From positions 262,647 to 326,646 of the forward strand of contig NZ_JADNRN010000002.1 in assembly GCF_015595035.1 (NCBI RefSeq): a DNA stretch of 64,000 nt, written 5' to 3'. Origin of the DNA: Glaciecola sp. MH2013 (GTDB lineage Bacteria; Pseudomonadota; Gammaproteobacteria; Enterobacterales; Alteromonadaceae). Positions 29,123 to 45,079 of this stretch are shown here, piece by piece; the stretch's first letter is position 1, and each line of letters opens with the position of its first letter. Both the position numbers and the translations under genes were made by a program. The notes below the pieces were generated by a model that saw only the letters and a list, made by a program, of their open reading frames with translations, was not told the DNA's origin and did not search any database.

Positions 29123-30154
29123 CTATAAGTTAACTTTCCACAGCATATCGTTAACTTGGGTAATTTCTATATTACAGCCCAATATTTGCTTAATAACGGC
29201 AATATTCGTTGTTGTGTGTAAGCTTGGTTTTGTTGTTGTAAAACTGCCGCTCCCAGCGATAGCAATTAAGATAAGCAACTGGTCGGCGAGATACTCTTCT
29301 ACGGCGGCTTTGGCATGTATGAACTTATTTACTCGTCCCACAGCACGTTTGGCAACTTTCTCTGATGATAAGCCATGCTCGCCAACAACCTCAAATATAC
29401 TACGATGAGTTTGGCTTTGAATGCTAAGCTGGAAGCTGTTACCAGGGCCAGGAGAATCTATCTGGTGAACTTGATTTAAGGCGTTCTGCCAACCAAGAAG
29501 CTTCTGAGCCGTGGCAATTTCTCTTTGGCCTATGCTGACTGGCAATAAACTCACCAAGGCATCAAGAGAACAGTTGTCTATATCGTTAGCGAAGTCGCCA
29601 CCCGAATCACTTAAGAAAAAAGGCTTGAGTGTTACAGATGGCTTCACATTAAGTTGCCATTTACCGCCGCCAGCAGGATAGAATCCCAGTTTTGAAGTAC
29701 TGACGCGACAATTTACCCCCATACCTTTTATTAAGGGCAAATATGATTGCTCGAAAAAGCTTAATGAAGGAGACATACCATTGTGTGTGCCGCCCTCAAA
29801 TACGACTGTTGAACTTTCTTTTGCCAAGGATAACACTGGTAAAATGGTCTGGCAGACCAATGTGGTACTTCCGGCGCTGCCAATAGCAAATCGATAATTC
29901 CCTGGTTTAACAGTGCGTGGTGAGAACCGAATTCGAGTAGCTCCCAGTTCCACACCTTCTGTTATAGCATCAGAAACCTCTTGTGCTGCCAAAACAGAAG
30001 TAAGGTGCTGACGTAATAGTCCAGGCTTTTTCCGACCAGCACGAATATTTACTAATTCAATATTCTGCTGGGTAAACATCGATAAAGTCAGGGCTGTTCT
30101 TAGCACCTGACCACCACCTTCTCCTTGAGCACCATCAATTATCATATAGTCCAT
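29123..30154 (-). CDS. rtcA: RNA 3'-terminal phosphate cyclase
   Basis: MDYMIIDGAQGEGGGQVLRTALTLSMFTQQNIELVNIRAGRKKPGLLRQHLTSV matches the RtcA N-terminus; 343 aa. Confidence 0.9.
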   Translation of the reverse strand: MDYMIIDGAQGEGGGQVLRTALTLSMFTQQNIELVNIRAGRKKPGLLRQHLTSVLAAQEVSDAITEGVELGATRIRFSPRTVKPGNYRFAIGSAGSTTLVCQTILPVLSLAKESSTVVFEGGTHNGMSPSLSFFEQSYLPLIKGMGVNCRVSTSKLGFYPAGGGKWQLNVKPSVTLKPFFLSDSGGDFANDIDNCSLDALVSLLPVSIGQREIATAQKLLGWQNALNQVHQIDSPGPGNSFQLSIQSQTHRSIFEVVGEHGLSSEKVAKRAVGRVNKFIHAKAAVEEYLADQLLILIAIAGSGSFTTTKPSLHTTTNIAVIKQILGCNIEITQVNDMLWKVNL

Positions 30155-30172
30155 TTTAACTCCTTATAACTA

Positions 30173-31396
30173 TTAACCTTTTACACAAACAATTTGCTTC
30201 AAGGTATAAACGACTTCAACAAGATCCTTCTGTGCTTCCATAACCTTTTCGATGTCTTTGTATGCGTGTGGTATCTCGTCTATGACTGATTCGTCCTTCC
30301 TACATTCAACACCTTCGGTCGCAGCAATTTGATCTTTCACATTGTAAATCTTCTTGGCTTTAGTTCTCGACATCACACGACCAGCACCGTGGCTGCAGCT
30401 ATTAAAGCTTTCTGGATTTCCCAAGCCTCTTACGATGAAAGAGCGAGCGCCCATACTTCCTGGAATGATCCCCATTTCGCCTTTTTCAGCCCTTACAGCC
30501 CCTTTTCTGGTAACGTAGCATTCTTTGCCAAAGTGACGTTCGCGCGAAATATAATTATGGTGACAATTTACAGCAAGCTCAGCAGTCGAAAATGGCACTG
30601 GCAACTGTTTTCGTAACGCAGCTATTGCATTGAACATCATAACTTCACGATTTTTCGCTGCGAAGTCTTGAGCCCACTCTACGGCTTCAACATAGTCGTT
30701 GAAATAGTCGCTTCCCTCCTCAAGGTAAGCCAAGTCCATATCCGGCAGGTTTATTTGATGGCGCTGCATTTCTTTCTTCGCTAATTCAATAAAATAGCTA
30801 CCAATGCGGTTTCCAACACCGCGACTACCTGAGTGAAGCATTATCCACACAGCATCATTTTCATCTAAACAAAGCTCCAAAAAGTGATTCCCTGTTCCCA
30901 TCGTGCCAAGGTGTTTAACGTTGTTACTTTTCTCGATCGCCGGGTGCTTGGCGCAGATCCGTTCAAAGCGAGCTTGCAACTTCAACCACTCTCCGGCAAC
31001 AAGGTCTGGAATGTTATGCCAAGCACCTCTATCTGCTCGCCCTCGACCACTTGTTCTACCATGGGGAACGGCTGCCTCAAAAGCGTGCCTAATTGCAGAT
31101 AAGTTATCAGGCAACTGGCTAGCCTTTAGGGTTGTTTTAGTTGCTACCATGCCGCAACCAATATCAACACCAACAGCAGCTGGTATAACAGCATCAACAG
31201 ATGGAATAACACTCCCAATCGTTGCGCCCTTGCCTAGATGTACGTCTGGCATCACTGCAATGTGCGAATGTACCAGTGGCATTGATGCTATATTTTTTAA
31301 TTGCTGCTGAGCTTTTTCTTCAAAAGGGACTCCCTTAGTCCACGCTTTGATTGGTGCGCTTCCTTCATTCTCTATCACGTTGTAGTTCTTACACAT
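30173..31396 (-). CDS. rtcB: RNA-splicing ligase RtcB
   Basis: 407 aa; ...KAWTKGVPFEE...HIAVMPDVHLGKGATIGSVIPS...GTMGTGNHF...HSGSRGVG...HGAGR metal- and GMP-binding motifs. Confidence 0.95.
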   Translation of the reverse strand: MCKNYNVIENEGSAPIKAWTKGVPFEEKAQQQLKNIASMPLVHSHIAVMPDVHLGKGATIGSVIPSVDAVIPAAVGVDIGCGMVATKTTLKASQLPDNLSAIRHAFEAAVPHGRTSGRGRADRGAWHNIPDLVAGEWLKLQARFERICAKHPAIEKSNNVKHLGTMGTGNHFLELCLDENDAVWIMLHSGSRGVGNRIGSYFIELAKKEMQRHQINLPDMDLAYLEEGSDYFNDYVEAVEWAQDFAAKNREVMMFNAIAALRKQLPVPFSTAELAVNCHHNYISRERHFGKECYVTRKGAVRAEKGEMGIIPGSMGARSFIVRGLGNPESFNSCSHGAGRVMSRTKAKKIYNVKDQIAATEGVECRKDESVIDEIPHAYKDIEKVMEAQKDLVEVVYTLKQIVCVKG

Positions 31397-31423
31397 TATA
31401 ATTTCCTTAAATATTCTTTTTTA

Positions 31424-32578
31424 TCAAGCTATGTTGACGGTGCCATTCATTAGGCCTTCCAAGCCACCGTAAACAGTCAAGCTATCAATTCTTTCAGCCA
31501 CCTTTTCAAGGGCTTCGAGCTCCTTTAGCCGCATCAATGTTGGGTTGTTTTCCATGACTTTTGCGGTGTTATGCAAGCTTCTTGTTGCAGAGGTTTCTTC
31601 ACGTCTTTTTATTACGTTTGCCTCTGCCGCTTTTTGCGCTTCGACTACCTGATTCAATATTGCTTTCATCTCACCGGGCAAGATGATGTCTTTCACTCCA
31701 ACACTTACAAGTGATACACCAACATCTGCTAGCCGCTCGAATGCCAGTTCTTTAACTGTCTCATTCACGTACAATTTATCTAACAAAATATCATCCAAAG
31801 ACTTAGTGCCGACGGCTTCCCTCAATGCTAACTGCAGTGCCTTATAAATAAAGTCATCTACTTTATCGACACTACGTGCTGCTAACTCGGCATCATCTAC
31901 TTTGATACTTGCGCTTAAATTAATTCGCAAACTCACTCTGTCTTTGCTCAAAATTTCTTGCCCAGAAATCTCAAGCAATTGAGTTCTACAATCAAAAGAC
32001 TTCAATTCAATGTCGTGATTAAACTGCCAAAACCCATGTTGACCAGGAGATAGCTTTCGCAGCAATTGACCATTTACATAAAGTAAGCCGATATGATTTT
32101 TGTCTACATTCAAATCAGCAATTGGTTTAACTGCTACGGTGCGCTCGCTTCTAATGAGACGTGACGCTGCATTGGCACCAGCTCTGTTGACTAGAAAAAG
32201 CGTTTTATCATCAACATCGATACTTTCATCAATAGAAATTTTTTCTACCCTTATATCGCCAGCATCTTTCCAAAGATATAGATGCTCACTTGGCGCCACG
32301 ATACCTCTGAGTAAATCGTCAACGTAAAGCAAACCCACTTCTGTACTTTTTAGCTTCCAATGAGATATATGCTCTGCGAATACTGTTTGATTACGATATA
32401 AGCGTTCAGCGTTTTTTTCGGAAAAGAACAGGGTATTGATGTCAAAATAGATAAACTCAAATTCATTCTTGATGTCCCAGATTCTGTGTCTTCCTGGTTT
32501 TATTACGCTGTTAAACTGTTGATTTTTGTATGCCAAAACTCTTTGGTTTTCTGCTACTACTAGTGTTTTTATGAACAT
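31424..32578 (-). CDS. cytoplasmic SPFH/band-7 (slipin-like) domain protein, first gene of the rtc operon
   Basis: C-terminal half has the SPFH core and coiled coil (...GVKDIILPGEMKAILNQVVEAQKAAEANVIKRREETSATRSL...). N-terminal roughly 200 aa holds an internal duplication (VGLLYVDDLLRGIVAPSEHLYLWKD / IGLLYVNGQLLRKLSPGQHGFWQFN) and no TM helix. 27 nt upstream of rtcB on the same strand. Confidence 0.7.
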   Translation of the reverse strand: MFIKTLVVAENQRVLAYKNQQFNSVIKPGRHRIWDIKNEFEFIYFDINTLFFSEKNAERLYRNQTVFAEHISHWKLKSTEVGLLYVDDLLRGIVAPSEHLYLWKDAGDIRVEKISIDESIDVDDKTLFLVNRAGANAASRLIRSERTVAVKPIADLNVDKNHIGLLYVNGQLLRKLSPGQHGFWQFNHDIELKSFDCRTQLLEISGQEILSKDRVSLRINLSASIKVDDAELAARSVDKVDDFIYKALQLALREAVGTKSLDDILLDKLYVNETVKELAFERLADVGVSLVSVGVKDIILPGEMKAILNQVVEAQKAAEANVIKRREETSATRSLHNTAKVMENNPTLMRLKELEALEKVAERIDSLTVYGGLEGLMNGTVNIA

Positions 32579-32759
32579 TAAAAAATTCCTTATTTAGTCC
32601 TCTTTGAAGAGGGGGTTAGTAAGTGTTAAGTACTTGTTCGATAAGGGCCTGAAACATAACAACCACGGGGAGCGTCCTGCTTGCCATAGCGCATTTGTTC
32701 TTGGCGTTTACCCAACATTGGTAATCACAACTTACTAACGCTTAGTTACTTATCATTGT

Positions 32760-32831
32760 ATAAAGGATGGGAATTGAACCCATAACCCTCGAATTAAAAA
32801 TTCGATGCTCTACCAATTGAGCTACCTGTAT
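32760..32831 (-). ncRNA. tRNA-like element A (72 nt; Lys-UUU-like anticodon loop; AU-rich acceptor stem; no CCA)
   Basis: Minus-strand read ATACAGG-TA-GCTC-AATTGGTA-GAGC-A-TCGAA-TTTTTAA-TTCGA-GGGTT-ATGGG-TTCAATT-CCCAT-CCTTTAT gives a full cloverleaf with G18G19 and a TTCRANY T-loop; one acceptor mismatch; A1:U72. Confidence 0.75.
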
Positions 32832-32898
32832 TTAAGGAAGGATTCGAACCTTCGCCAATAGCCCTATGCTATTGCTCTATCCTCTGAGCTACTTAAAT
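32830..32898 (-). ncRNA. tRNA-like element B (69 nt; non-canonical anticodon loop CATAGGG with A33; 3-nt variable loop)
   Basis: ATTTAAG-TA-GCTC-AGAGGATA-GAGC-AATAG-CATAGGG-CTATT-GGC-GAAGG-TTCGAAT-CCTTC-CTTAAAT; perfect 7-bp AT-rich acceptor; overlaps element A by 2 nt. Confidence 0.7.
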
Positions 32899-32901
32899 GT
32901 T

Positions 32902-32970
32902 TATTAAGATGGGACTCGAACCCATGACCTTCGAAAAAATTCGATGCTCTTCCTCCTGAGCTACTTAATA
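32902..32970 (-). ncRNA. tRNA-like element C (69 nt; anticodon arm collapsed to TCGAA-TTTT-TTCGA, 4-nt loop)
   Basis: TATTAAG-TA-GCTC-AGGAGGAA-GAGC-A-TCGAATTTTTTCGA-AGGTC-ATGGG-TTCGAGT-CCCAT-CTTAATA; same T-stem as element A; cannot decode. Confidence 0.7.
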
Positions 32971-33060
32971 TCTGTTTGATCAGGTATACGCATTCGCAGA
33001 GCTCAGCGCACCGGGGTGATGTTTTGAATCACACCCACTTAATCAGACGAATAGGTATTT

Positions 33061-33076
33061 ACAAGTCACGTGCCAG
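33061..33076 (-). promoter_or_regulatory. putative sigma-54 (-24/-12) promoter for the tRNA-like, SPFH, rtcB, rtcA transcript
   Basis: Minus strand reads cTGGCACgtgacTTGTa: a perfect -24 TGGCAC with a -12 TTGT (consensus TTGC) at correct spacing. It lies between divergent rtcR and the operon, as in the RtcR-dependent enterobacterial rtc promoters. No other GG-N10-GC candidate in the intergenic region. Confidence 0.35.
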
Positions 33077-33211
33077 CTTTTACTTTTATTTTAAATTTGT
33101 AGTTAAGTTATTGTTTTAATTTACTTAAGTATGTTTTTTTGTGACTTTCGTAGGTTTTTAATTGAAATTCAAAGAATAAAAAAGTACTGTTTTGGATATT
33201 AAAGTATCTAT

Positions 33212-34825
33212 ATGGATAGTGTTGTGAAAGATGTAGTTGTTGTTAGTTTGATTGGCACACAATTAGATTATGTAGGTAAGAGAGTTGACCGATGGGCCAA
33301 GTGGCGACCTAACGTCAGCCTCTGCAGCCAAGATGATTTGGTGATAAATCAGCTTCACCTTTTGCATGATAACCATAGTAATCGTCTCGCTAACGATGTC
33401 ACCGTCGACATTGAATCAGTCTCTCCAGAAACCGAAGTTAGTCTGCATAGTGTTAATTTTCAGAATCCATGGGATTTTGAAGAAGTTTACGCGAAACTGT
33501 TTGATTGGTGCCTTCAGCAAGATTTTGATACCGACAAAAATGACTATTTATTCCATATAACAACAGGGACACATGTTGTTCAGATATGCAGTTATTTACT
33601 TACCGAAAGTCGCCACTTCCCAGGTCGTCTCATTCAGACATCACCTGATCATAACAATAAGAACAAATCGATTGGTCGGATACAAATTATCGATTTAGAT
33701 CTATCTAGGTATGATCAACTCGCGACGAGATTTGATGTTGAACACCAAGAAGGTAAAGAGTTCTTAAAAGGGGGCATTGAAACCAAAAATAAAGATTTTA
33801 ATAATCTCATTGGGCAAATTGAGAAAGTGGCGATTCGCTCAAAAGATCCGATGTTACTCACCGGACCTACAGGTGCAGGAAAGAGTCAGTTAGCTACGCG
33901 AATATTTCAGCTAAAAAAGAAACGTTCAATGCTGAAAGGCACGCTAGTGTCGGTGAACTGCGCGACCTTGAAGGGTGAAAATGCTATGGCCGCATTGTTT
34001 GGCCACACAAAGGGCGCTTTTACTGGCGCTTTAAAAGCGAGGGATGGGTTTTTACTTACTGCGAATGAGGGGGTTCTTTTTCTAGATGAAATAGGTGAGC
34101 TTGGTTTGGAAGAGCAAGCCATGCTGTTACATGCGATTGAAAACAAGAGCTTTCATCCTGTTGGAAGTGATGCAGTAGTTAACAGTGGTTTTCAACTCAT
34201 TGCAGGCACGAATAAAAATCTGAAGGAGGAAATTAAAAAAGGTGCTTTTCGAGAAGATTTGCTTGCGAGAATAAACCTTTGGACATACGAACTACCAGCT
34301 CTTAAAGATAGGAAGGAAGACATTCCTGCAAATGTTGATTATGAGATTGAGTTGTATTCCCAAAAGTCGGGGCATCGAGTGCAGTTCAATAAGGAAGCTA
34401 AAAGTCGTTTTATTGGCTTTGCAGTATCTAATAAAGCCACATGGTCTGGAAACTTCAGAGATTTAAGCTCGGCAATAACACGGCTTTGCACCTTGGCAGA
34501 TTCATCAAGAATTACTATTGCAGATGTTGAAGACGAGATTGAGAAATTAACGCGCGCTTGGAGTTCATCGGGTGAACAAACTCACACTGATATTTTAAAT
34601 AGCTATTTATCAACAGAGCAGATTCAGCAACTTGATAAGTTTGATGCACAACAACTGAGTTATGTTTTGGCGGTTTGCCAGCGACACACTAGCATGGCAT
34701 CTGCCGGCAGAGAGTTGTTTGATGTTAGCCGAACATTTAAATCTCAACCGAATGATTCAAGTCGTTTACAAAAGTATTTGAATAAATTTGGTTTAAAGTG
34801 GAGAGATATCCGAAGTATCGATTGA
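33212..34825 (+). CDS. rtcR: sigma-54-dependent transcriptional activator RtcR (CARF, AAA+, HTH)
   Basis: 537 aa. N-terminal CARF-like VVVSLIGTQLDYVGKRVDRWAKWRPNVSLC; Walker A GPTGAGKSQLA; GAFTGA sigma-54 contact motif; near-colinear with E. coli RtcR as recalled. Confidence 0.9.
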   Translation: MDSVVKDVVVVSLIGTQLDYVGKRVDRWAKWRPNVSLCSQDDLVINQLHLLHDNHSNRLANDVTVDIESVSPETEVSLHSVNFQNPWDFEEVYAKLFDWCLQQDFDTDKNDYLFHITTGTHVVQICSYLLTESRHFPGRLIQTSPDHNNKNKSIGRIQIIDLDLSRYDQLATRFDVEHQEGKEFLKGGIETKNKDFNNLIGQIEKVAIRSKDPMLLTGPTGAGKSQLATRIFQLKKKRSMLKGTLVSVNCATLKGENAMAALFGHTKGAFTGALKARDGFLLTANEGVLFLDEIGELGLEEQAMLLHAIENKSFHPVGSDAVVNSGFQLIAGTNKNLKEEIKKGAFREDLLARINLWTYELPALKDRKEDIPANVDYEIELYSQKSGHRVQFNKEAKSRFIGFAVSNKATWSGNFRDLSSAITRLCTLADSSRITIADVEDEIEKLTRAWSSSGEQTHTDILNSYLSTEQIQQLDKFDAQQLSYVLAVCQRHTSMASAGRELFDVSRTFKSQPNDSSRLQKYLNKFGLKWRDIRSID

Positions 34826-34848: not shown

Positions 34849-37398
34849 CTATTTCACTAGTCCATCTACAAAGTTTTTGATATCTGTATTACTGAATGGT
34901 TTAGATAGCAGTTCTACATTTTCAAAACCTTCCTTTTTGATGCCCTGAAGTTCACTATATCCTGTAACGAAAATGAATGGGATGCACAGTTCTTTAAGGT
35001 GCTTGGCGATTGAAATGCTGTTTTCGCCTCCTAAGTTAACATCAAGTATGGCAAACGAGATGCTTTCCTTATTGATGATTTTAATAGCGTCAGCAGAGCT
35101 AGCGGAGACGAATACCTTTTTAACACCCAGAGCATAGAGTGTGTCTTCAAGGTCTAAGGCAATAATCATATTGTCTTCGACAATCAACGCACTAGATAGA
35201 GCATTTCTTGCAGTAGGTGAGCTAAGTGTGTGTTCTGATGAATTTTCGTAAGGTTTTGGTTGCGCATCTGTTGTTACTACAAATTTACTGGGGACACTCA
35301 GTGTTACATCTATTCCATTGCCATGCGCTATTACATCTGCGGTTCCATTTAAGTCGAAGGGAATGGAGCGACTTATAATAATCGAACCGAAACCTTTTTT
35401 AGTAGCCAGTTCATTTTCATAACCAGATTCCTGCCAATCAATCGTTAAATCCTTGTTGTGCGATAAACTCCATTCAATTTTTATTTGTCCACGATCGTTT
35501 CGCAAAGCGCCATGTTTAACAGCGTTTGTTACTAACTCGTGAACAACCAATGTAAGGGTAGTGTACGCCTTAGGTAACAGATTTACCGATGGGCCTTCAA
35601 TAATCACATTGTTTTCTATGTTTTCAGTAAAAGGGTTTAACTCTGTTTCAATAAGCTCTTGAAGTGGTGCATGGCTCCAATTGCGTTTAGTAAGGTGGTT
35701 TTGTGCAACCGCAATAGCTTCAATTCTCCCTCCAAGCACTTGCTTAAACTCAGAGATATCTACTGCATTACTGGCCGTTTTTGATATCACCGAGCTAATC
35801 AGACCCAATATGTTTCTTACTCTATGATTCAGCTCGTGAATCAGCATATCTTGCTGTTGTTGTGATTCTCTTATCAAGCGCTCACGTTCATCAATGTTAC
35901 GAATAACAATTTCCATAAGCATTTGTCGGAAAAGCTTTGCTAAGCCAATTTCTTTTTCTAACCAAGGCGCACTGAAGCCTTTCCTTAGCTCTTGCCAAGC
36001 GGCAAAACTTTTTCGTGGTGTTAATCTTGATCCATTTGGGCCCAGACTAACTGGTTTTTCTGGGTTGCCAGCCCATGATATTGCTTGAGTCTCTTCTTTG
36101 CGAAGAAAAATCATGAAGTCTTTGGGATGTCTCGAAATTGGTATTGCGAGCATACCTGCGTAGCGTTCAGAAACGGTCAGTTCTGAGTCTAGAAATGAAG
36201 CTAAATTATCAGAGTAAACTACCTCATTAGTAGGGTAATTATTTAATTCCTTTAGAATAAGCTGAATATCCTCATCACTGATTTCAGCTCCAGTTTGAGC
36301 CATTTTTTTATCGACCCACAAAACAGTGCTATCAGACTGAATGAGCTCATGAAAGCTATCGATATGCGGTACTAAATTGTTATACACAGTCTCTTCATTA
36401 TTCATTGCAGACATAATACTGACTTGAAGGCTTCGAGCTCTGTCAGTATCGACCATACTTGCATTGCGAAGTCGGCCCGCAAGTTCCAATGAAAATACTT
36501 CTCCGTATACCTCTATTATCGACCGCAATTCTAAACTCATATATTTCGCACTATTGTGATGGCAAGCAAACAGCCCCCACAATTCCCCATCAACCACAAT
36601 ACTTAATGAGAAACTAGCTCCTACACCCATATTCTTCAAATACTCAATATGTATCGGCGATACTGCTCTGAGTGAACTAAGAGAAAGGTCGATTGCTTCT
36701 TCGTTACTGTCGTTCGAACCTATTATGTCGATCGTTTCGGCGTCTACATCTTCAATTTGGCGCGTTAGGTTCTTTACGTATAAGCGCCGGGCTTGTTTGG
36801 GGATGTCAGAGGCTGGGTAGCGTAAACCGAAGAAGCTTTCCATTTCGTGAGTTTTATTTTCTGCAATAACTTCGCCTGTACCATCGTTGTGAAAGCGATA
36901 AAGCATGATCCTATCGTAGCCTGTTAGTTGACTAATTTGTTCGGTCGCATGCACAAACAAACTCTGCATTGAATCGGTTTGAGAAAGAGATCTCAGGGTA
37001 TCTCTAAAACTGGGAAGTGACCTTCGTTGTTGTACAGGTTGGTGATATTCAAATTCAACTATTACTAATTCGCCGCTTTTGTGAATACTGATATCGTAGG
37101 ATGTTTTTCGGTCAAAAATAAACTCAGCAAATACGCGTTGTGTTTGCTCTGGTGCAAGCTCTTGAGCGAAGTGTTTAATTTCAGTGAATATTGAAGGGGA
37201 AATTAATTGCTCACTTGGTATTTTGAAGCACTCCTCGATACTCAAATTAGTAAATTTCTCGATATTTTTTGAGCAATAAGCCAAACGCCAATCTTGCGTA
37301 AAGGCAATAAATCCGCCATACGCCTGTATCTTTCCGACTAAGTGAATCGCTTCTTTATCGCAGCTAGATAAGTCGACATTTTTATATGAGTTACTCAT
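34849..37398 (-). CDS. bphP: bacteriophytochrome with HWE/HisKA_2-type kinase and C-terminal receiver
   Basis: N-terminal SSCDKEAIHLVGKIQAYGGFIAF (biliverdin Cys plus IH..G.IQ motif); GAF/PHY; H-box HELNHRVRNILGLISSV; C-terminal REC (ALIVEDNMIIALDLEDTL...FAILDVNL). Start taken at ATG 37398 (MSNSYKN...), which overlaps the upstream kinase stop as ATGAGTAA; the ORF also opens at 37458. Confidence 0.8.
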   Translation of the reverse strand: MSNSYKNVDLSSCDKEAIHLVGKIQAYGGFIAFTQDWRLAYCSKNIEKFTNLSIEECFKIPSEQLISPSIFTEIKHFAQELAPEQTQRVFAEFIFDRKTSYDISIHKSGELVIVEFEYHQPVQQRRSLPSFRDTLRSLSQTDSMQSLFVHATEQISQLTGYDRIMLYRFHNDGTGEVIAENKTHEMESFFGLRYPASDIPKQARRLYVKNLTRQIEDVDAETIDIIGSNDSNEEAIDLSLSSLRAVSPIHIEYLKNMGVGASFSLSIVVDGELWGLFACHHNSAKYMSLELRSIIEVYGEVFSLELAGRLRNASMVDTDRARSLQVSIMSAMNNEETVYNNLVPHIDSFHELIQSDSTVLWVDKKMAQTGAEISDEDIQLILKELNNYPTNEVVYSDNLASFLDSELTVSERYAGMLAIPISRHPKDFMIFLRKEETQAISWAGNPEKPVSLGPNGSRLTPRKSFAAWQELRKGFSAPWLEKEIGLAKLFRQMLMEIVIRNIDERERLIRESQQQQDMLIHELNHRVRNILGLISSVISKTASNAVDISEFKQVLGGRIEAIAVAQNHLTKRNWSHAPLQELIETELNPFTENIENNVIIEGPSVNLLPKAYTTLTLVVHELVTNAVKHGALRNDRGQIKIEWSLSHNKDLTIDWQESGYENELATKKGFGSIIISRSIPFDLNGTADVIAHGNGIDVTLSVPSKFVVTTDAQPKPYENSSEHTLSSPTARNALSSALIVEDNMIIALDLEDTLYALGVKKVFVSASSADAIKIINKESISFAILDVNLGGENSISIAKHLKELCIPFIFVTGYSELQGIKKEGFENVELLSKPFSNTDIKNFVDGLVK

Positions 37399-39634
37399 AG
37401 TGATTGCTCTTTTGGGTTGGAGTATTTGCTCGCATTTGCTTGGCTGAATGAATGTCATTTACGAACGTGGCTTCAAGTAATTCACATACCTGGTTTGATG
37501 AAGGTAGGAGCGGAATAGTTCGACAGGTACGCTGCCAAACAGTTGGTTGCTTGAAAACGGTATCAGTTAACACACAAATCGGAATAACAATACGTTTCGC
37601 CGTAAACTCATTAAACAACAGGGGTATGCTTAATCTTGGAAGTTCATAATCAATTAGAAGAAGTTGAAATGACTCTACCGTAAGTATTTCAGGTATGTCG
37701 GCAGCCTTATCGACAAACATCATCTTGAATGCTTGGGTTGTATTGAAAATTTGCAGTAAGGATGAAATGAGTTTTTCATTTTCTGATGCGACTAATATAT
37801 TAATCGGGTTTGCAAAAGAGCATTGTGTAGCAATGTCTTCCAATTTCTGAGCAAGTTTTTGCTTCTCTGCTTGGTCAATCGATTTGCTTACAAACATTTG
37901 ATACAGATTTTCGGCTATTTCACTTGGGCTTAAAGGTTTGGAAAGTACTAGATCCGTAACCTTTCTGCATTCTGATATAAGCTCGTCATCTACTGAGGCA
38001 GTGATGGCGACAATAACAGCTGTTGATTTGCTATCCTTTATTATCTTCGAAGCTTCCACGCCCGACATAATGGGCATGTGAATATCCATCCAAATAACAT
38101 CAAAATGTCGCTCGGCCGCCTTGTGAATTGCTTCTTTTCCGTTAGAGGCAAAGTCGAAGTCAGAGAAGCCTAGTTGTTTTAATGACTCGTGAAGCACCAC
38201 TTTATTTATTTCATTGTCATCAACAATTAAATGAGAAATCGGATTTGTTGTTGCATATGTTAACATTAATGTAGAGTAGTCGATGGGGTATTCACTTAGC
38301 GTATAAGACGCTCGTAAAACGTCGCTACGGACTGCAATTTGGATTAGCTCGCTCGGTAGAATTGGTTTATACAGTACATGCCAATCAGCGAATTCTTTAT
38401 ATTGATTATTGTCGAGTAAAACACAATTCGCTTTCGCTCGAAGGGCGTCTTTTAATTCATTGCTTTCCTGAAGTGTACCTAGCTCAGCAAAGTCGATGAT
38501 AAGTAAATCGGTTTGTTCGGAATGATTTTCTGAAAGCAGACTTTGCGTTGAATCATACTGTTGAACGTTAATATTCCAATTTGAAAACAGTGAGCGAATT
38601 GATTCGGTTGCTGTTCCCTTTGAGGAAACTAGCTTGATTATTGTTTTATGTTTATGCTCAGCGGTAAATCGAGGTATCCCTTTTAGTCGCACCTTTTTGA
38701 AAGTGAGGTCAAAAAAGAGTTGTGTTCCAAAGTTCTCTTTGCTCTTAGCTTGAATCTTTCCTCCCATCATTTCGACTATTTCTTTGCTAATGTTGAGGCC
38801 AAGACCAGAACCTCTTGCACGAGAATTTTGGCTTGAATTCACTTGATAAAAGGGTTCAAAAACGGCTGCAAGATCTTTCTCAGGAATCCCCACGCCCGTG
38901 TCGGATACTAAGAATCTTACTGAGAGCTCTTCTGCATTTTCCTGTCTGAATATGACCCACACAGAAACGTTACCGTGGTCAGTGAATTTGAAGGCGTTAC
39001 CTATCAAGTTACTGAGCACCTGATACAAGCGTTGAGAATCTGATTTTACGCCAAGCTCAATCAGCCTAGAATCGAAATGGAGTTGAAGTTCGATGTTTTT
39101 CGATTGTGCCGACTGGGTAAATATTCTGACTACGTTTTCGCAAACTTCTAAGAGTCTGAATGGCTCTAAACGCAAAGACATTCCATTTGGAGAGTTATTC
39201 GAGAGATCTATTGCATCAGAAATAACCGTCATCAAAGCACGCGAAGAGACTCTAATTTGGTCCAAGTATCGTTGTATTTTTGGTGATACTGTTTCTTTTT
39301 CAATAACTTCAATTAAACCATTGATGCCATGTAATGGTGTTCGAAGGTCATGACTCACTTTTGCCAAATGCTTCGCTTTATCTTGCGATATTTCTTTCTC
39401 TTGCTCAATTAAACTGCTGTACTTGTCATCATTGCTTTTGATGCTCTGAACATGTAGGTACTGGATGATTATCAAAACCAAAGTTACAAGGATTATCAAG
39501 ATGGACGCTATCACAGGTAACCAATCTGGCTGTTGTGTTTGTATGAATGTATTGAAGCTTGCGAAGGTGAATAAAAGCCACAGTGTTATTCTCACGACAC
39601 TAACTCCTCTTGGGTAACCACCTTCTTGTTGCAT
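37391..39634 (-). CDS. hybrid sensor histidine kinase/response regulator (two TM helices, HisKA, HATPase, two REC)
   Basis: SHDLRTPLHGI H-box; G-box GSGLGLNISKEIVEMMGG; REC LIVDDNEINKVVL...DVIWMDIHMP. Start uncertain (ATG 39634 chosen; ORF extends to 39706 and overlaps bphO). Confidence 0.8.
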   Translation of the reverse strand: MQQEGGYPRGVSVVRITLWLLFTFASFNTFIQTQQPDWLPVIASILIILVTLVLIIIQYLHVQSIKSNDDKYSSLIEQEKEISQDKAKHLAKVSHDLRTPLHGINGLIEVIEKETVSPKIQRYLDQIRVSSRALMTVISDAIDLSNNSPNGMSLRLEPFRLLEVCENVVRIFTQSAQSKNIELQLHFDSRLIELGVKSDSQRLYQVLSNLIGNAFKFTDHGNVSVWVIFRQENAEELSVRFLVSDTGVGIPEKDLAAVFEPFYQVNSSQNSRARGSGLGLNISKEIVEMMGGKIQAKSKENFGTQLFFDLTFKKVRLKGIPRFTAEHKHKTIIKLVSSKGTATESIRSLFSNWNINVQQYDSTQSLLSENHSEQTDLLIIDFAELGTLQESNELKDALRAKANCVLLDNNQYKEFADWHVLYKPILPSELIQIAVRSDVLRASYTLSEYPIDYSTLMLTYATTNPISHLIVDDNEINKVVLHESLKQLGFSDFDFASNGKEAIHKAAERHFDVIWMDIHMPIMSGVEASKIIKDSKSTAVIVAITASVDDELISECRKVTDLVLSKPLSPSEIAENLYQMFVSKSIDQAEKQKLAQKLEDIATQCSFANPINILVASENEKLISSLLQIFNTTQAFKMMFVDKAADIPEILTVESFQLLLIDYELPRLSIPLLFNEFTAKRIVIPICVLTDTVFKQPTVWQRTCRTIPLLPSSNQVCELLEATFVNDIHSAKQMRANTPTQKSNHYE

Positions 39635-40188
39635 AAGGCTCTGAGAGCGGAAAAAGAGTCCAATGCACCAGCAAGTACTTGTTGATAGTGCTCTTCTGTG
39701 GCGCACAGGGAATGAATATAGTTAATTGTGGTGCGGAAGCTATCTATTTTTTGGTGGCCATAGCAATCGTAAAAACGAGTAGCCTTTTGTAATCCGAGTG
39801 TTTTTTTAACTTTTTTACCGATAATCATACCACCAAGAGAAGAGCCCTCAGCGACGTACAGCACTCCTAGGGAAAAGTGTCTAGATGCCGTCTTCTTAGC
39901 GAGTGCTAATTTTGGCAGTGTTGTTCCGCCTAATTCCTGTAAATCTGCCTCCAGCAATCCAGTTTTTACTTTTATTAACGGTAAAGACGAGTGATTGAAA
40001 TATTCGTGTAAATGCGTGGACTCCGCGGCGGCAAACCATTTATGCATAATTTGCATAACCGCTATATAGCTTTCAATAGTTAACGTTGTTTCCATCAAAC
40101 TTCTTAACAAAGGACTGCTATCCAATGCTGTGTGGGCAGAGTGCGTATCTGTTTTTAGCCTTTGATGTGTTGTATTAAAATAATTCAA
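39592..40188 (-). CDS. bphO: heme oxygenase (biliverdin-producing, BphO/HemO-like)
   Basis: 198 aa; N-terminal LKTDTHSAHTALD fits the heme-oxygenase proximal-His helix; heads the phytochrome operon. Confidence 0.65.
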   Translation of the reverse strand: MNYFNTTHQRLKTDTHSAHTALDSSPLLRSLMETTLTIESYIAVMQIMHKWFAAAESTHLHEYFNHSSLPLIKVKTGLLEADLQELGGTTLPKLALAKKTASRHFSLGVLYVAEGSSLGGMIIGKKVKKTLGLQKATRFYDCYGHQKIDSFRTTINYIHSLCATEEHYQQVLAGALDSFSALRALCNKKVVTQEELVS

Positions 40189-40382
40189 ATCTACAAGCTA
40201 CTCTTTAACGGATTGATGTACAAATATAATACATTATTTGCTCTAAAGTTAGTCTAGCACAATACCGTGGAAATATTTGAAGCTCACGCATTTACTTGCG
40301 TCTAGAGCAGCTTGCTTTTGTAAAAGTGACCTTGTATCGCTCTACTCTTTGCCTTACCTTGTATCTGTAGTTTCAGTTTAAA

Positions 40383-40445
40383 AAAAGGACAAAATACATG
40401 GAGCAAGATTGGCACTTGAACGTGATGTGTAAAGAAATCATCGGC
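40383..40445 (+). pseudogene. decayed partial paralog of the downstream DUF1399 gene
   Basis: AAAAGGACAAAATACATGGA is 20/20 identical to the RBS and start of the 41205 gene. The next GCAAGATTGGCACTTGAACGTGA and TGTGATGTGTAAAGAAATCATCGGC match 41392-41432 and 41447-41470 at about 83%, with the intervening segments deleted. Confidence 0.55.
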
Positions 40446-40626
40446 TGGGAAGAAGAAAGAGTGAACCTATGTGTTTTTAGGTTCACGCTACTCTAGGACG
40501 ACTAACAGTGAAATTTATTGCACTCATTTTGACAACACTTCCCACTAATTGCGATTCTTCGGCAGGAGAACATTCTTTGCATACTTGAACCGAATTAGAA
40601 ATGTCGTCTTTTGATATGTCCAGTGG

Positions 40627-40971
40627 TTAAGAGGCAGGAACCAAAAGATAAATTGAGATGGATATAGATACTACGGACACAACAAGAATCATAAAAGCCG
40701 TGATTTTTTTATGAGTATTCAATGCGGTCTTTAATGAAGGCATAGCAACTTTCCTAACCAAGTGGTACACAAAGAAAACTGAAGTGAATAATAAAAATAT
40801 ATAACTAACTTCAGTTACTTGCTTAGTGAGCGGGACATTTTTAAAAGTGAAAAAGTATCCTACAGTAAACAACACAAGCGACACTGGGACGCTCATAGTT
40901 AGCGATGACCATAGCGCGTTAAGAGCGTATCTTGATGCTGCTGTTACTTTAATAATAGAATGACTCTTCAT
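40627..40971 (-). CDS. small membrane protein (hypothetical)
   Basis: ATG 40971 behind SD AGGGGGA; three predicted TM helices. Confidence 0.45.
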   Translation of the reverse strand: MKSHSIIKVTAASRYALNALWSSLTMSVPVSLVLFTVGYFFTFKNVPLTKQVTEVSYIFLLFTSVFFVYHLVRKVAMPSLKTALNTHKKITAFMILVVSVVSISISIYLLVPAS

Positions 40972-41204
40972 ACTTTTTCCCCCTTTTTCGTAGTTTAAGC
41001 AAGTTGTCATTCATTTCCAAGTTATTTATCTATTTACAGGTCTTTATGCTGCGATCGAAATCGTGCTTTAGCCTACCTCGGGTGTATTGAGCAAACTCAG
41101 GGAGGGTGATTTCAGCACTGACTGTTGAAAGGTCGAAAGCATAGACTGATAAAGCTTTTTTCTTTATTGTGAACACTTCATAGTTGCTCAAAAGGACAAA
41201 ATAC

Positions 41205-42014
41205 ATGGATCAGTCTCTTTACAAAGCCATCATGGCGTTGAACATCAGTGATAAGAATGCCGCTTTTACATTCGAAATGCGTTTGGCACGAGAAAATGCA
41301 TGGAGCTTGGATTATGCCAAGCAGGTGGTGCATGAATATAAACGTTTTATTTATCTAATTGCTAGCACTAATCGGTCGCAAACTCCGTCAGATCAAGTGG
41401 ATCAGGCTTGGCACTTGCACATGACTTATACCGATTCGTATTGGAATGTGATGTGTAAGGAGATCATCGGCAAGAACATACATCATGGTCCGACTCGCGG
41501 TGGTGCAGAGCAACGTCAAACATATCGAGAGCAGTACATAAATACCTTACATACTTACCGCGACGTGTTTGGCGACGAGCCTGCATCCATTTGGCCAAGT
41601 GCCGACAAACGCTTTGCCAATGCATCTGAGTTTGTACGGTTGAATAAAGCGGATTACTGGCTTCTTCCAAAATTGGGTTTTCCTAAATTTCTCGTTGCAC
41701 CTTTGAGCGTTGCAGGTTTTTTAAGCTTGGCTTTCGTTAGCTATGCTGCAGGTGACTCGCATGTTGAGTTTAGCAGGCTGTTGACTATTGGCGGCTTGGT
41801 TGTATTCATTGTGTTGATGATTTGGCTTGTTGTTCGTTTGAGCTCATCTTCAAAAAAAGACTCAGGTGCTGACGGCACTGGCGGCTATATTGGCAGTGGT
41901 TCATCATCCAATGCGAATAAGCACGATGCAGCAAATAAAAAAAATGACATCGACGTTGATATCGACAGCGGAGGTAGTGGTTGTGGGTCGGGCTGTGGCG
42001 GCTGTGGTTCTTAA
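41205..42014 (+). CDS. DUF1399 (glycine-rich-domain-protein-like) protein with TM helices and a Cys/Gly-rich C-terminal tail
   Basis: ATG 41205 behind SD AAAAGGA; conserved D..DQAWHLHMTYTDSYW region; two C-terminal TM helices; tail ...DSGGSGCGSGCGGCGS. Confidence 0.6.
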   Translation: MDQSLYKAIMALNISDKNAAFTFEMRLARENAWSLDYAKQVVHEYKRFIYLIASTNRSQTPSDQVDQAWHLHMTYTDSYWNVMCKEIIGKNIHHGPTRGGAEQRQTYREQYINTLHTYRDVFGDEPASIWPSADKRFANASEFVRLNKADYWLLPKLGFPKFLVAPLSVAGFLSLAFVSYAAGDSHVEFSRLLTIGGLVVFIVLMIWLVVRLSSSSKKDSGADGTGGYIGSGSSSNANKHDAANKKNDIDVDIDSGGSGCGSGCGGCGS

Positions 42015-42154: not shown

Positions 42155-45079
42155 ATGAAAAGGCGTTTCACCAAATCGCTTATAAGTTCTATTGTCTTGA
42201 TGTCGTTGTCTATGGCGGCTGCTCACTCGGCAACGCGTAACCCGGCTTCTACAGCGAGCATTAATAAGCAGATTTGGCAGCAAAGTGAGGAGAATCATTG
42301 GTCTTTGCAAAACAATGAGCTGCTTACTAAGGCAAGAGAAACTCAACGAATTGCGCTACCTATATATATAGCAAACACAGCTGAATACACTATGAGTAAG
42401 TCGCGCGTAATGTCGCCGGCACTTTCAGCTAAATATCCGAATATTCAGAGTTACAACATCCAGCATGGTGATGATTTAGGCTACCTTGTTATTAGCAGCG
42501 ACAGCATGAGCGGTGCGTATCAGATTAACGGGCAATGGCACGATATTGCTACCGACTACAGCGCTCAGGCTTCGGGTTACAATGGCGTTAGTTCCCAGCC
42601 AAATGTGCGGATATCGCCCAGTTTCGACAACCAACTAGAGGCGAAGAAAGCGCTGCAGTCACTAGAAGCTTTGCATCAAGAGTTATTAAACGCCAGTATC
42701 CGGCAAGCAAAGGGAGTTAACTCTAGCGACAACTCGTTAGCAGACACTGGTGACACGCTTACTACCTATCGCTTAGCCGTTAGCGCTAGTGGTGAATACA
42801 CAAGTTCAACAGGTGGCACAGTTGAGAGCGCATTGGCCGGTATTGTGACCTTGTTTACGCGCGTGAACCAAGTGGTTGAAAAAGACTTGGCTATCAGCTT
42901 TGAATTAATTGGCAATAATGATCAACTCATTTTCTTAGACGCCGATACCGACCCATTTACGAATGATGACGGAAGTGCCGATATTGACGAAAATCAGGTT
43001 CAAATCGACGCTATCATCGGGTCTGAAAATTATGATATTGGGCATTTACTCAACACTAATGGTGGCGGTTTAGCGGGTTTAGGTGCTTTGTGTGTTAACA
43101 GCTTTAAAGCAAAGGGTTATACAGGATCTCGTCAGCCATCGGGCGAGCGTTTTATTGTTGACTTATTACTTCACGAAGTGGGTCATCAGTTGGGCGGAGA
43201 GCACTCATTTAACGCGAGCGAGAGTAATTGCAATGGAAATCGTTCACGAAGTGGGCGAGCCTCAGTGGAAATTGGCAGTGGCACAACAATCATGTCCTAC
43301 GCCGGCATTTGCAGTTCGCAGAATATTTCGAGAATAAGTACACCTCACTTCCATGCGTTTTCGATAGATCAGATGCGACAAACGATTGATAGAAGAAATT
43401 GTGGTGTTAATACGTCTTTGGCAAATACTGCTCCTTCAATTTCACTTAGTGCTAATAACTACCTTATTCCAGCGCTAACACCATTTTTACTTGATGCAAC
43501 AGTGACCGATGAGGAGCAATCCGAACTTGAACATATATGGGAACAGGTTGACCCTGGCGGTATCAATGGTGCAACTGCAAACATCACAGAAGCCAGCACC
43601 GACAACGGAGAAAACCCTTTGTTTCGTTCCTTCGAGCCGGTAGCCGAGACTTATCGTTATTTCCCCTCTCTTGCTAGTGTTATATCAGGTGAGTTGGCTC
43701 TGGGCGAAGTCTATCCAAATACTAATAGGGAACTTAGCTTTCGCTTAGTTTCACGTGACCAAGCTGCAGGTGTCGCTACTGCAAACGTCACTGTGGAAGT
43801 GGTAAAGACCTCTTCTGCCTTCTCGCTAAGTTCTCAAGCTTTTGATGAAACATGGGAAAGTAGCACCACCCAAGAATTAAGGTGGAATACCGGAGACTCT
43901 GAGCTTGCACCGATCAACTGTGCCGCAGTTGATGTGCTGGTGGATGCCGATCAAGACAATCTATTTGAGTTAGCAATTGCGTCAGATATACCTAATACAG
44001 GTAGTGCCAGTATTTCTGCTCCTAATATTAACTTGGATTCATCTCGCCTAATGCTGAAGTGTTCGACGAGTGTTTTCTTCAGTTTGAGTAGTGGTGAAAT
44101 TAACTTTGTCTCGGTAGACGATATGATGCCAATGATAACTGGGCAGACATCTGCAGTGTCGGCGCCCGAGGATACCAACTATACAGTTACCCTCGCTGAC
44201 TTAGTCGTGAGTGACGGTGACAGCTCTTACCCTGATGATTTTACCTTAGAGGTTCTCGATGGTGACAATTACTCAGTGAATGCAAATCAGGTAACTTTCC
44301 TACCTGATTTCAACGGTGACTTAAGTGTGCAGGTTCAGGTTAATGATGGCATGCTCGATAGTAATGTGTTTGACTTTGTAATTTCTGTCAGCCCTGTGAA
44401 TGATGCGCCTATCATCAATGGGCAAAATCAACTCAGTGTGGATGAAGATCAGACTGTTATCCTGAGCGTCAATAATTTAAGCGTAAGCGATATCGATAAT
44501 AGCTTAAGTGAATTGAGCTTGGTGTTGAGTTCAGGTGAAAATTATAGTTTTAGTGGCAGCACTGTTATTCCCGACAGCGACTTTTTTGGTAGCCTGACAA
44601 TTGATTTGCGTGTTAGCGACGGAACTGATGTAAGTGATAGTTTTGCGCTTGAACTCAATGTAGAAAATGTCAACGATGCGCCTGTCGCGGAATCGGATTC
44701 GGTTGTTTTACTACAAGGCTCCGGTTCAACGAATATCAGTGTATTGCAGAACGATATTGATGCCGACAGCGCTGCTGGTGATACTCTCACGGTTGTAGCC
44801 ATCAGCTACTCAGGGCAGGGCGCTGCTAGCTTTGACGCAAGCTCAGTCAACTACCAAGCCAGTGCCAGCTTCATCGGAAGTGAAACGATCACCTATACCA
44901 TAGAGGATGCAGCTGGCGAGCAAGCAAGTGCAACTATAAATATACGCGTAAATGAAATACCCGCTAGTACTCCGGAAGAAAGCCCCGCGAGTGATAGTTC
45001 GGGTGGTTCGATACCAATGACCTTGATTGCCCTGCTAAGTGTGTTTGCATGGCTTAGGAGGTCGTCAAATGCTAAATAA
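42155..45079 (+). CDS. secreted metzincin zinc metalloprotease with cadherin-like/VCBS repeats and a GlyGly-CTERM sorting signal
   Basis: Signal peptide; HEVGHQLGGEH (HExxHxxGxxH); several roughly 100-aa repeats ending VNDAPI/VNDAPV; C-terminus SSGGSIPMTLIALLSVFAWLRRSSNAK (GG, hydrophobic helix, RR). Confidence 0.8.
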   Translation: MKRRFTKSLISSIVLMSLSMAAAHSATRNPASTASINKQIWQQSEENHWSLQNNELLTKARETQRIALPIYIANTAEYTMSKSRVMSPALSAKYPNIQSYNIQHGDDLGYLVISSDSMSGAYQINGQWHDIATDYSAQASGYNGVSSQPNVRISPSFDNQLEAKKALQSLEALHQELLNASIRQAKGVNSSDNSLADTGDTLTTYRLAVSASGEYTSSTGGTVESALAGIVTLFTRVNQVVEKDLAISFELIGNNDQLIFLDADTDPFTNDDGSADIDENQVQIDAIIGSENYDIGHLLNTNGGGLAGLGALCVNSFKAKGYTGSRQPSGERFIVDLLLHEVGHQLGGEHSFNASESNCNGNRSRSGRASVEIGSGTTIMSYAGICSSQNISRISTPHFHAFSIDQMRQTIDRRNCGVNTSLANTAPSISLSANNYLIPALTPFLLDATVTDEEQSELEHIWEQVDPGGINGATANITEASTDNGENPLFRSFEPVAETYRYFPSLASVISGELALGEVYPNTNRELSFRLVSRDQAAGVATANVTVEVVKTSSAFSLSSQAFDETWESSTTQELRWNTGDSELAPINCAAVDVLVDADQDNLFELAIASDIPNTGSASISAPNINLDSSRLMLKCSTSVFFSLSSGEINFVSVDDMMPMITGQTSAVSAPEDTNYTVTLADLVVSDGDSSYPDDFTLEVLDGDNYSVNANQVTFLPDFNGDLSVQVQVNDGMLDSNVFDFVISVSPVNDAPIINGQNQLSVDEDQTVILSVNNLSVSDIDNSLSELSLVLSSGENYSFSGSTVIPDSDFFGSLTIDLRVSDGTDVSDSFALELNVENVNDAPVAESDSVVLLQGSGSTNISVLQNDIDADSAAGDTLTVVAISYSGQGAASFDASSVNYQASASFIGSETITYTIEDAAGEQASATINIRVNEIPASTPEESPASDSSGGSIPMTLIALLSVFAWLRRSSNAK

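Follow-up and report, generated by a model that had tools for sequence, protein, structure and literature searches.

A sensorless hybrid histidine kinase encoded between bphO and an Agp2-like bacteriophytochrome gene in Glaciecola sp. MH2013 and related loci

Background

The operon described here lies on the minus strand of a 64,000-nucleotide stretch of the Glaciecola sp. MH2013 genome (contig NZ_JADNRN010000002.1, positions 262,647 to 326,646; the whole stretch is referred to below as the window) and encodes, in this order, a heme oxygenase (bphO, 198 aa), a hybrid HisKA histidine kinase (734 aa) and a bacteriophytochrome with a PAS2-GAF-PHY-HWE-REC domain order (bphP, 849 aa). The middle kinase has no sensor domain, and a short membrane anchor precedes its HisKA domain. 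In the H-NOX/HnoK and NosP/NahK pairs, a kinase that lacks a sensor is controlled by a sensor protein from another gene of the operon, but the sensors of those pairs are small heme proteins without kinase activity, whereas BphP is a full kinase with a receiver. Among described phytochromes, Agp2 (AtBphP2) of Agrobacterium fabrum, a type 2 bathy phytochrome, has the same domain order as BphP; no signalling partner of Agp2 is known, and according to reviews no target has been found for the receiver of Agp2-type phytochromes and the role of their light-regulated kinase activity is not known (PMC8117939). The best structural match of the middle kinase is ShkA of Caulobacter crescentus, a sensorless hybrid kinase in which a pseudo-receiver serves as the input site for cyclic di-GMP (c-di-GMP; PMC6969517, PMC7010744) and whose orthologues have been defined by a DDR motif in the linker between pseudo-receiver and receiver (PMC7010744).

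Second kinases have been described downstream of, or beside, other bacteriophytochromes. The BphP1-AgR-ExsF-ExsG cluster of Rhizobium NT-26 and A. tumefaciens likewise contains two kinase types, the second kinase acting as a relay in a branched pathway (PMC3899027). It is the mirror image of the Glaciecola operon, since it combines a HisKA phytochrome with the REC-HWE kinase ExsG, whose receiver stands in front as an input, whereas here an HWE phytochrome accompanies a HisKA kinase with its receivers behind; moreover, the window operon encodes no separate single-domain regulators. In Ramlibacter tataouinensis, heme oxygenase, phytochrome and an 'atypical hybrid histidine kinase' are likewise found in one operon (hmuO-RtBphP1-cheY-RtBHK), and the RtBHK kinase mutant phenocopies the phytochrome mutants (PMC6848086). 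However, RtBphP1 is a classical kinase without a fused receiver, a CheY-like regulator is present, and the kinase gene is located downstream of bphP and not between bphO and bphP. PaBphP, a bathy phytochrome, and the kinase KinB both act on AlgB (PMC11021371).

The initial annotation of the window regarded a light-input phosphorelay built from two kinase types as unusual. This is an overstatement, as there are published parallels in BphP1/ExsG (PMC3899027) and Ramlibacter (PMC6848086) and the pairing is the rule throughout the clade to which the window phytochrome belongs. Within the literature searched we found no description of a bphO-hybrid kinase-bphP(HWE-REC) module, and what appears to be undescribed is the clade-defining, ShkA-like sensorless HisKA hybrid kinase set between bphO and an HWE-REC phytochrome.

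Results and discussion

Organization of the operon

Three minus-strand open reading frames (ORFs), 39592-40188, 37391-39706 and 34849-37458 (the latter two being the longest ORFs), coincide exactly with the bphO-kinase-bphP trio that had been annotated at 34849-40188, and domain annotation with Pfam, proposed at the same time, finds the expected domains in all three proteins. The kinase actually starts at the GTG at 39595, which is preceded by GAGGAG and overlaps the bphO stop codon as GTGA, and bphP starts at the ATG at 37398, overlapping the kinase stop codon as ATGAGTAA. Only the latter overlap had been noticed earlier, with coupled expression as its suggested consequence; the overlapping codons in fact provide for translational coupling at both junctions. 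The bphO gene begins with TTG, and because a stop codon lies four codons upstream, this is the sole start that retains the heme-ligand His. The 734-aa kinase and the 849-aa BphP are 100% identical over their full length to the Glaciecola sp. MH2013 NCBI proteins P0121 and P0001, respectively. The matches of the three proteins greatly exceed chance expectation, and the gene order recurs in other organisms.

A terminator-like hairpin (40486..40461) located 3' of an upstream 127-aa ORF closes that gene, and rtcR is convergent with bphP, their stop codons being separated by 23 bp; the three genes thus form a unit of their own. No match to the strict sigma-70 consensus was found in 40189..40460, where we place the candidate promoter from the positions of the hairpin and the bphO start. 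The unit comprises the following elements.

40189..40460, minus strand: candidate promoter/leader region of the operon, between the upstream hairpin and the bphO start at 40188
39592..40188, minus strand: bphO, heme oxygenase, 198 aa, TTG start (Pfam Heme_oxygenase and alignment to HemO 1J77)
37391..39595, minus strand: sensorless hybrid histidine kinase, 734 aa, GTG start (Pfam; 100% identity to P0121; AlphaFold2 model; Foldseek match to ShkA 6QRJ)
34849..37398, minus strand: bphP, 849-aa bacteriophytochrome carrying an HWE kinase and a receiver, ATG start overlapping the kinase stop (Pfam; match to 6G1Y)

Architecture of the middle kinase

The protein encoded between bphO and bphP is, as annotated, a classical HisKA hybrid kinase. 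Pfam detects HisKA (residues 73-133, 3e-12), HATPase_c (186-298, 2e-26) and a single receiver (Response_reg, 456-563, 2e-26), and the catalytic and receiver residues H82, N196, D232-T-G, G262/G264-L-G-L (G262, G264-L267), D459, D460, D504, K553 and P554 are invariant in 13 orthologues, while T532 is nearly invariant (>=90%) in a 27-sequence alignment. An AlphaFold2 (AF2) model computed from the latter alignment (predicted local distance difference test score, pLDDT, 82.7) has helices at residues 2-18 and 26-99 and arranges the protein as a long helix leading from the membrane into the dimerization and histidine phosphotransfer (DHp) domain, the catalytic domain, a beta-alpha domain (319-423), the receiver (454-569), a linker helix and a further beta-alpha domain (598-724). 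Its parts map to the window as follows.

39455..39589, minus strand: membrane anchor, residues 3-47, with a 7-residue loop and no extracytoplasmic domain (AF2 helices; hydropathy)
38702..39379, minus strand: kinase core, DHp (H82) and catalytic ATP-binding (CA) domain (Pfam; invariant residues)
38327..38641, minus strand: pseudo-receiver, residues 319-423, between catalytic domain and receiver (AF2 fold without helix 4)
37907..38230, minus strand: canonical receiver, residues 456-563, D504 (Pfam REC 2e-26; D459, D460, D504, K553, P554 invariant)
37424..37804, minus strand: third, degenerate receiver-fold domain, residues 598-724 (hhalign; AF2 (beta-alpha)5 fold)

Of the two transmembrane helices and two receivers expected from the initial annotation, residues 26-47 are strongly hydrophobic but residues 3-18 only marginally so, and one receiver (D504) is canonical but the two receiver-fold domains that flank it are degenerate. 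In the pseudo-receiver, the phospho-site column holds D, E or Q among orthologues and the acidic pair is missing; its hhalign match to the canonical receiver is weak but in register (E 0.0075, probability 5%). The assignment rests on the AF2 fold, on the match to ShkA and on the true receiver that generic hybrid kinases have in the aligned position. The third domain matches the canonical receiver over its full length (hhalign probability 94%, E 1e-7) and keeps D649; in the window protein, however, S/E stand in for the acidic pair and Leu for the conserved Lys. Shorter orthologues lack this third domain altogether, and the number of membrane helices varies from 0 to 2; in the orthologues of two loci (L092 and L096) HisKA begins at residue ~16 with nothing ahead of it. 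The DHp-CA-pseudo-receiver-receiver core, by contrast, is kept in all orthologues, and a sensor domain has never been gained. With home-made hidden Markov models (HMMs), no HPt domain was found in the kinase, and no HPt domain or further receiver elsewhere in the 64-kb window.

Full-length ShkA (PDB identifier 6QRJ) is the top Foldseek match of the kinase, with an E-value of 6e-28 over 511 aligned columns. Both proteins lack an N-terminal input domain, share the DHp-CA-pseudo-receiver-receiver order and have a pseudo-receiver without helix 4 (PMC6969517). The window kinase differs in having a membrane anchor and a third, degenerate receiver, and ShkA has no link to a photoreceptor. We considered whether the window kinase could be an orthologue of ShkA and rejected this, as the DDR motif is absent from the whole protein, the linker between pseudo-receiver and receiver reading SDVLRASYTLSEYPIDYSTLMLTYATTNPISH; the resemblance to ShkA is therefore one of architecture and not of membership. 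The alignment of the two sequences obtained with phmmer covers the kinase core only and excludes the pseudo-receiver, including the c-di-GMP contact residues R324, Y338, R344, S347 and Q351 of ShkA. The kinase is not a member of the NahK/ErcS family either, given that it scores 160 bits against a cut-off of 400 with the corresponding NCBIfam model (NF041832).

Conservation of the kinase next to bphP

In each of the ten other independent loci of the clade, bphP has a neighbour of this kinase family (HMM score 516-963) at a distance of 0-23 bp, and the genomic flanks of these loci are unrelated. The BphPs of the kinase-linked contigs are 43-61% identical to the window BphP. Three arrangements occur in the clade overall. 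The collinear bphO-kinase-bphP order with overlapping codons is found in L001, L003 (Opacimonas viscosa), L092, L093 and L098; in L005 and L087 bphO-kinase is convergent with bphP; and in L088 (Marinobacterium), L089 (Thiohalocapsa marina) and L096 kinase-bphP remains, while bphO is absent or interrupted by an insertion element, the stop and start codons overlapping also in L096. In L089 (1107-3000), the bphO upstream of the kinase is in fragments next to an rve_3 transposase gene, suggesting that it was disrupted by an insertion element.

A metagenome scan with a BphP alignment yielded 80 further full-length HWE-REC phytochrome loci, which were taken into an HMM census. In this census the family kinase is absent from the ~76 HWE-REC BphP loci outside the clade (BphP <=40% identical; Roseibium and Erythrobacter are among them), and in most of these a small heme oxygenase-like ORF abuts or overlaps the bphP start. 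In a midpoint-rooted neighbour-joining tree of 86 full-length BphPs, all 11 kinase-linked BphPs form one exclusive clade with no intruders. Pairwise identities of kinase and BphP are correlated (r = 0.85, Mantel p ~2e-4), the kinase evolving faster (mean identity 31%, against 48% for BphP), and the BphP-adjacent kinases resemble each other more than they resemble ~110 generic hybrid kinases. A scan of contigs with patterns from the kinase alignment, which are generic kinase motifs, returned at least 80 loci (L007-L086), all of them with unrelated hybrid kinases of 24-38% identity. The simplest history suggested by these comparisons would be a single insertion of the kinase into an ancestral bphO-bphP pair, followed by stable co-inheritance.

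Two further gene sets were observed beside related phytochromes. In L095 (60-3940) a BphP that is 44% identical to the window BphP, and falls outside the kinase-linked clade, is preceded by three genes, which encode a 579-aa sensorless HisKA-HATPase-REC-HPt kinase, a 129-aa single-domain receiver and a 383-aa regulator consisting of a receiver and a 260-aa C-terminal domain for which no Pfam or NCBIfam match was found; the set looks like a complete phosphorelay beside the phytochrome. In L092 (2611-3758) and L096 (3964-5105) a BLUF gene and an overlapping EAL phosphodiesterase gene are located directly upstream of the phytochrome module, giving a 'light island' for blue and red/far-red light with a link to c-di-GMP.

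The phytochrome and its heme oxygenase

BphP has the domains expected of an Agp2-type protein, namely PAS_2 (2e-9, 38 bits), GAF (3e-11, 44 bits) and PHY (7e-40, 137 bits), all of which pass the Pfam cut-offs, followed by an output module of HWE_HK together with HisKA_2 (2.4e-21, 76.7 bits) and Response_reg (9e-9, 35.9 bits). An NCBIfam LOV-HWE kinase model spans residues 506-703, and the H-box (residues 521-532) reads HELNHRVRNILG. Among solved structures, the photosensory core of Agp2 (PDB identifier 6G1Y) is the nearest, matching residues 5-501 with an E-value of 1e-90, and PaBphP comes next. The domains are located as follows.

35896..37362, minus strand: photosensory core, PAS_2 (13-117), GAF (145-292) and PHY (322-501) (Pfam; match to Agp2 6G1Y)
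35284..35835, minus strand: HWE histidine kinase module, residues 522-705, H525, W655 and E657 (Pfam HWE_HK; NCBIfam; invariant residues)
34870..35187, minus strand: C-terminal receiver, residues 738-843, E741, D742, D786, T812 and K833 (Pfam REC; conserved residues)

The loss of chromophore-binding residues, which the initial annotation had named as the finding that would speak against a phytochrome, is not seen. C13, D198 (of the DIP motif), H250 and H280 of the chromophore pocket align to Agp2 and, like W442 and R462 of the PHY tongue (SWAGNPEKP and LTPRKSF), are invariant in 120 BphP homologues. The HWE residues H525 (the phospho-His), W655 and E657 are invariant in the same homologues. 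As regards the receiver, D742 is invariant, E741 is Glu in 118 of the 120 and Asp in 2, and D786, T/S812 and K833 are kept in 119, the exception being P0067, a shortened 795-aa sequence with a gap there. As precomputed Pfam results list no REC domain in some members of the clade, we considered a degenerate BphP receiver but rejected it, since 119 of the 120 homologues have D786 and the other key receiver residues are conserved as well.

Compared with Agp2, the Cys13 position and the DIP, SPIH, ACHH, tongue WAGNPEK and PRKSF motifs are identical. The N-terminal Cys and IHxxGxIQ-type motif recognized earlier are both present, the latter in EAIHLVGKIQ; the N-terminal motif reads EAIHLVGKIQAYG where Agp2 has EPIHIPGYIQPHG, and residues 13-33 read CDKEAIHLVGKIQAYG (window 37300-37362). 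The sampled HWE-REC clade has EPIH-x-LG-x-[IV]Q where Agp2 and other BphPs show the classical EPIHIPGxIQPHG, and the change from Pro to Ala is rare, being common to the window protein and P0013 only. With the NCBIfam BphP equivalog NF041576, BphP scores 248 bits against a cut-off of 1040, matching profile positions 1-535 of 622, which correspond to the photosensory part; as this model represents classical BphPs, BphP is not filed under the equivalog. BphP is a new member of the Agp2-like class (PAS2-GAF-PHY with HWE kinase and receiver). Its two nearest solved relatives, Agp2 and PaBphP (PMC11021371), are both bathy, an indirect hint that BphP probably has a Pfr dark state as well. A further difference from Agp2 is the translational coupling of bphP to the hybrid kinase and bphO.

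BphO is an ordinary, though divergent, BphO-type heme oxygenase, in keeping with the earlier call. Its Pfam Heme_oxygenase match (2e-11, 44.4 bits) exceeds the cut-off of 23, it has no NCBIfam match, and it aligns to Neisseria HemO (PDB identifier 1J77) with the proximal His within RLKTDTHSAHTALD and the distal-helix motif YVAEGSSLGG. Its gene is linked to bphP in the same operon here, and heme oxygenase-like ORFs adjoin bphP in most related loci. The small ORFs that abut bphP outside the clade (L090 6167-6712; L091 6498-7004; most of L099-L174) have no Pfam annotation in precomputed tables and give weak scores of 20-56 bits with an HMM built from the BphO proteins of the clade; they probably represent a very divergent, under-annotated heme oxygenase family.

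A proposed light input to the sensorless kinase

We propose that BphP provides the light input to the sensorless kinase as its dedicated partner and that the kinase relays the signal to an unlinked HPt protein or response regulator, a reading to which we assign a probability of about 0.55. BphO would convert heme to biliverdin, which BphP would bind at Cys13, and BphP would be the sole sensor of the unit, light controlling both the activity of its HWE kinase (H525) and how far its receiver is phosphorylated at D786. Input from BphP would reach the kinase either by phosphotransfer from H525 onto D504 or through the BphP receiver, which would dock on the core or the pseudo-receiver of the kinase, with phosphatase or sink behaviour as an alternative; from D504, phosphoryl groups would go on to the unlinked HPt protein or response regulator. 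We favour this proposal because the kinase is sensorless, the catalytic, chromophore and receiver residues are intact, both gene junctions overlap, and the 0-23 bp linkage and co-descent extend over the whole clade; because the pseudo-receiver of ShkA, the top structural match, is an input site; and because published pathways place a second kinase downstream of or beside a BphP, as in the cases of ExsG (PMC3899027), RtBHK (PMC6848086) and KinB (PMC11021371).

Several points weigh against the proposal. Contact or phosphotransfer between BphP and the kinase is something that we infer, together with its direction and chemistry, and the co-descent of the two proteins is also expected from simple linkage without direct interaction, the clade statistics resting on 11 independent loci. 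Both BphP and the kinase carry a tethered receiver, which is the normal acceptor of their own phosphoryl group, and in the literature searched we found no precedent for an HWE kinase passing its phosphoryl group across families to a receiver of the BarA/TorS-like kind. The operon has no gene for an HPt or output domain, and with the home-made HMMs none was found in the 64-kb window. Finally, the pseudo-receiver could bind a small molecule, as it does in ShkA.

The missing HPt and output domains also fit a design in which BphP and the hybrid kinase exchange no signal but converge on one unlinked HPt protein or response regulator, one of them acting mainly as a kinase and the other as a phosphatase or sink. 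Both proteins keep a full set of kinase and receiver residues, as this would require, and there are precedents in the PaBphP-AlgB-KinB system (PMC11021371) and, by likeness, in several hybrid kinases feeding one HPt protein; the kinase and the two response regulators beside the related BphP of L095 may be read in the same sense. However, a kinase without an input domain could contribute a second signal only if its pseudo-receiver sensed something, none of the 11 loci has a gene for a common target nearby, and the strict 0-23 bp spacing with overlapping stop and start codons suggests stoichiometric co-production over mere co-regulation. We consider convergence unlikely. A pseudo-receiver that does sense something leads to a kinase gated by a small molecule such as c-di-GMP, in which case the operon would integrate light with a second messenger or merely co-express the two proteins. 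The architectural match to full-length ShkA set out above, in domain order and in the absent helix 4, speaks for such gating, and weak support comes from a GGDEF-EAL gene directly upstream in L001, the BLUF and EAL genes directly upstream in L092 and L096, and a REC-GGDEF gene 3.3 kb downstream in L093. Yet DDR, the tether motif, is absent from the kinase, its linker included, and from the family consensus, and the residues with which ShkA contacts c-di-GMP fall outside the sequence alignment that could be obtained. Moreover, the neighbourhood signal is weak, since these bacteria have GGDEF and EAL genes in abundance and L092 is closely related to L096, and no such gene stands beside the operon in the window. 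Small-molecule gating seems to us less probable still.

That the kinase is an unrelated two-component gene which was inserted at this site by chance and takes no part in light signalling is very improbable. The kinase did arrive by insertion, given that bphO directly abuts bphP in the ancestral order seen outside the clade, but it stayed beside bphP even as identities fell to 43% among the BphPs and ~28% among the kinases, and the linkage outlasted rearrangement (collinear, convergent, or without bphO) and differing genomic flanks. In addition, its catalytic residues are invariant and it has no sensor of its own.

The dedicated-partner proposal could be extended to the class as a whole, in that Agp2-type phytochromes may signal from kinase to kinase, a dedicated ShkA-like kinase without a sensor using its pseudo-receiver or receiver to read the light-controlled receiver or HWE core of BphP; we offer this generalization tentatively and think it more doubtful than the proposal for the operon itself.

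Genomic surroundings

Directly downstream of the operon lies an RNA-repair cluster (window 29123-34825). Its rtcR gene (plus strand, 33212-34825) is divergent from an operon consisting of an SPFH/Band-7 gene (31424-32578), rtcB (30173-31396) and rtcA (29123-30154), and an SPFH gene at the head of rtcBA departs from the textbook order. Upstream of the operon are the 127-aa hydrophobic ORF (40627-41010, minus strand) and a 276-aa ORF (41184-42014, plus strand), neither of which has a Pfam or NCBIfam match. Further upstream, a 974-aa reprolysin-like (M12B) metalloprotease with C-terminal cadherin-like/Big_9 repeats (42155-45079, plus strand) appears unrelated to the operon.

Conclusions

The loci described here document red/far-red sensing modules in heterotrophic marine Gammaproteobacteria, some of them beside BLUF blue-light genes. 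Their value is that of a lead; no current view is overturned, and specialists would not be surprised. A clade in which an Agp2-type phytochrome is always tied to one sensorless hybrid kinase offers a concrete partner candidate for a class of phytochromes without a known output. The module would also be a second natural case in which to study the function of a hybrid-kinase pseudo-receiver (PMC7010744). If Agp2-type phytochromes do signal from kinase to kinase, pseudo-receivers would be inputs for protein docking and not only sites for small molecules, and this marine gammaproteobacterial clade would give that class its first genetically linked model.

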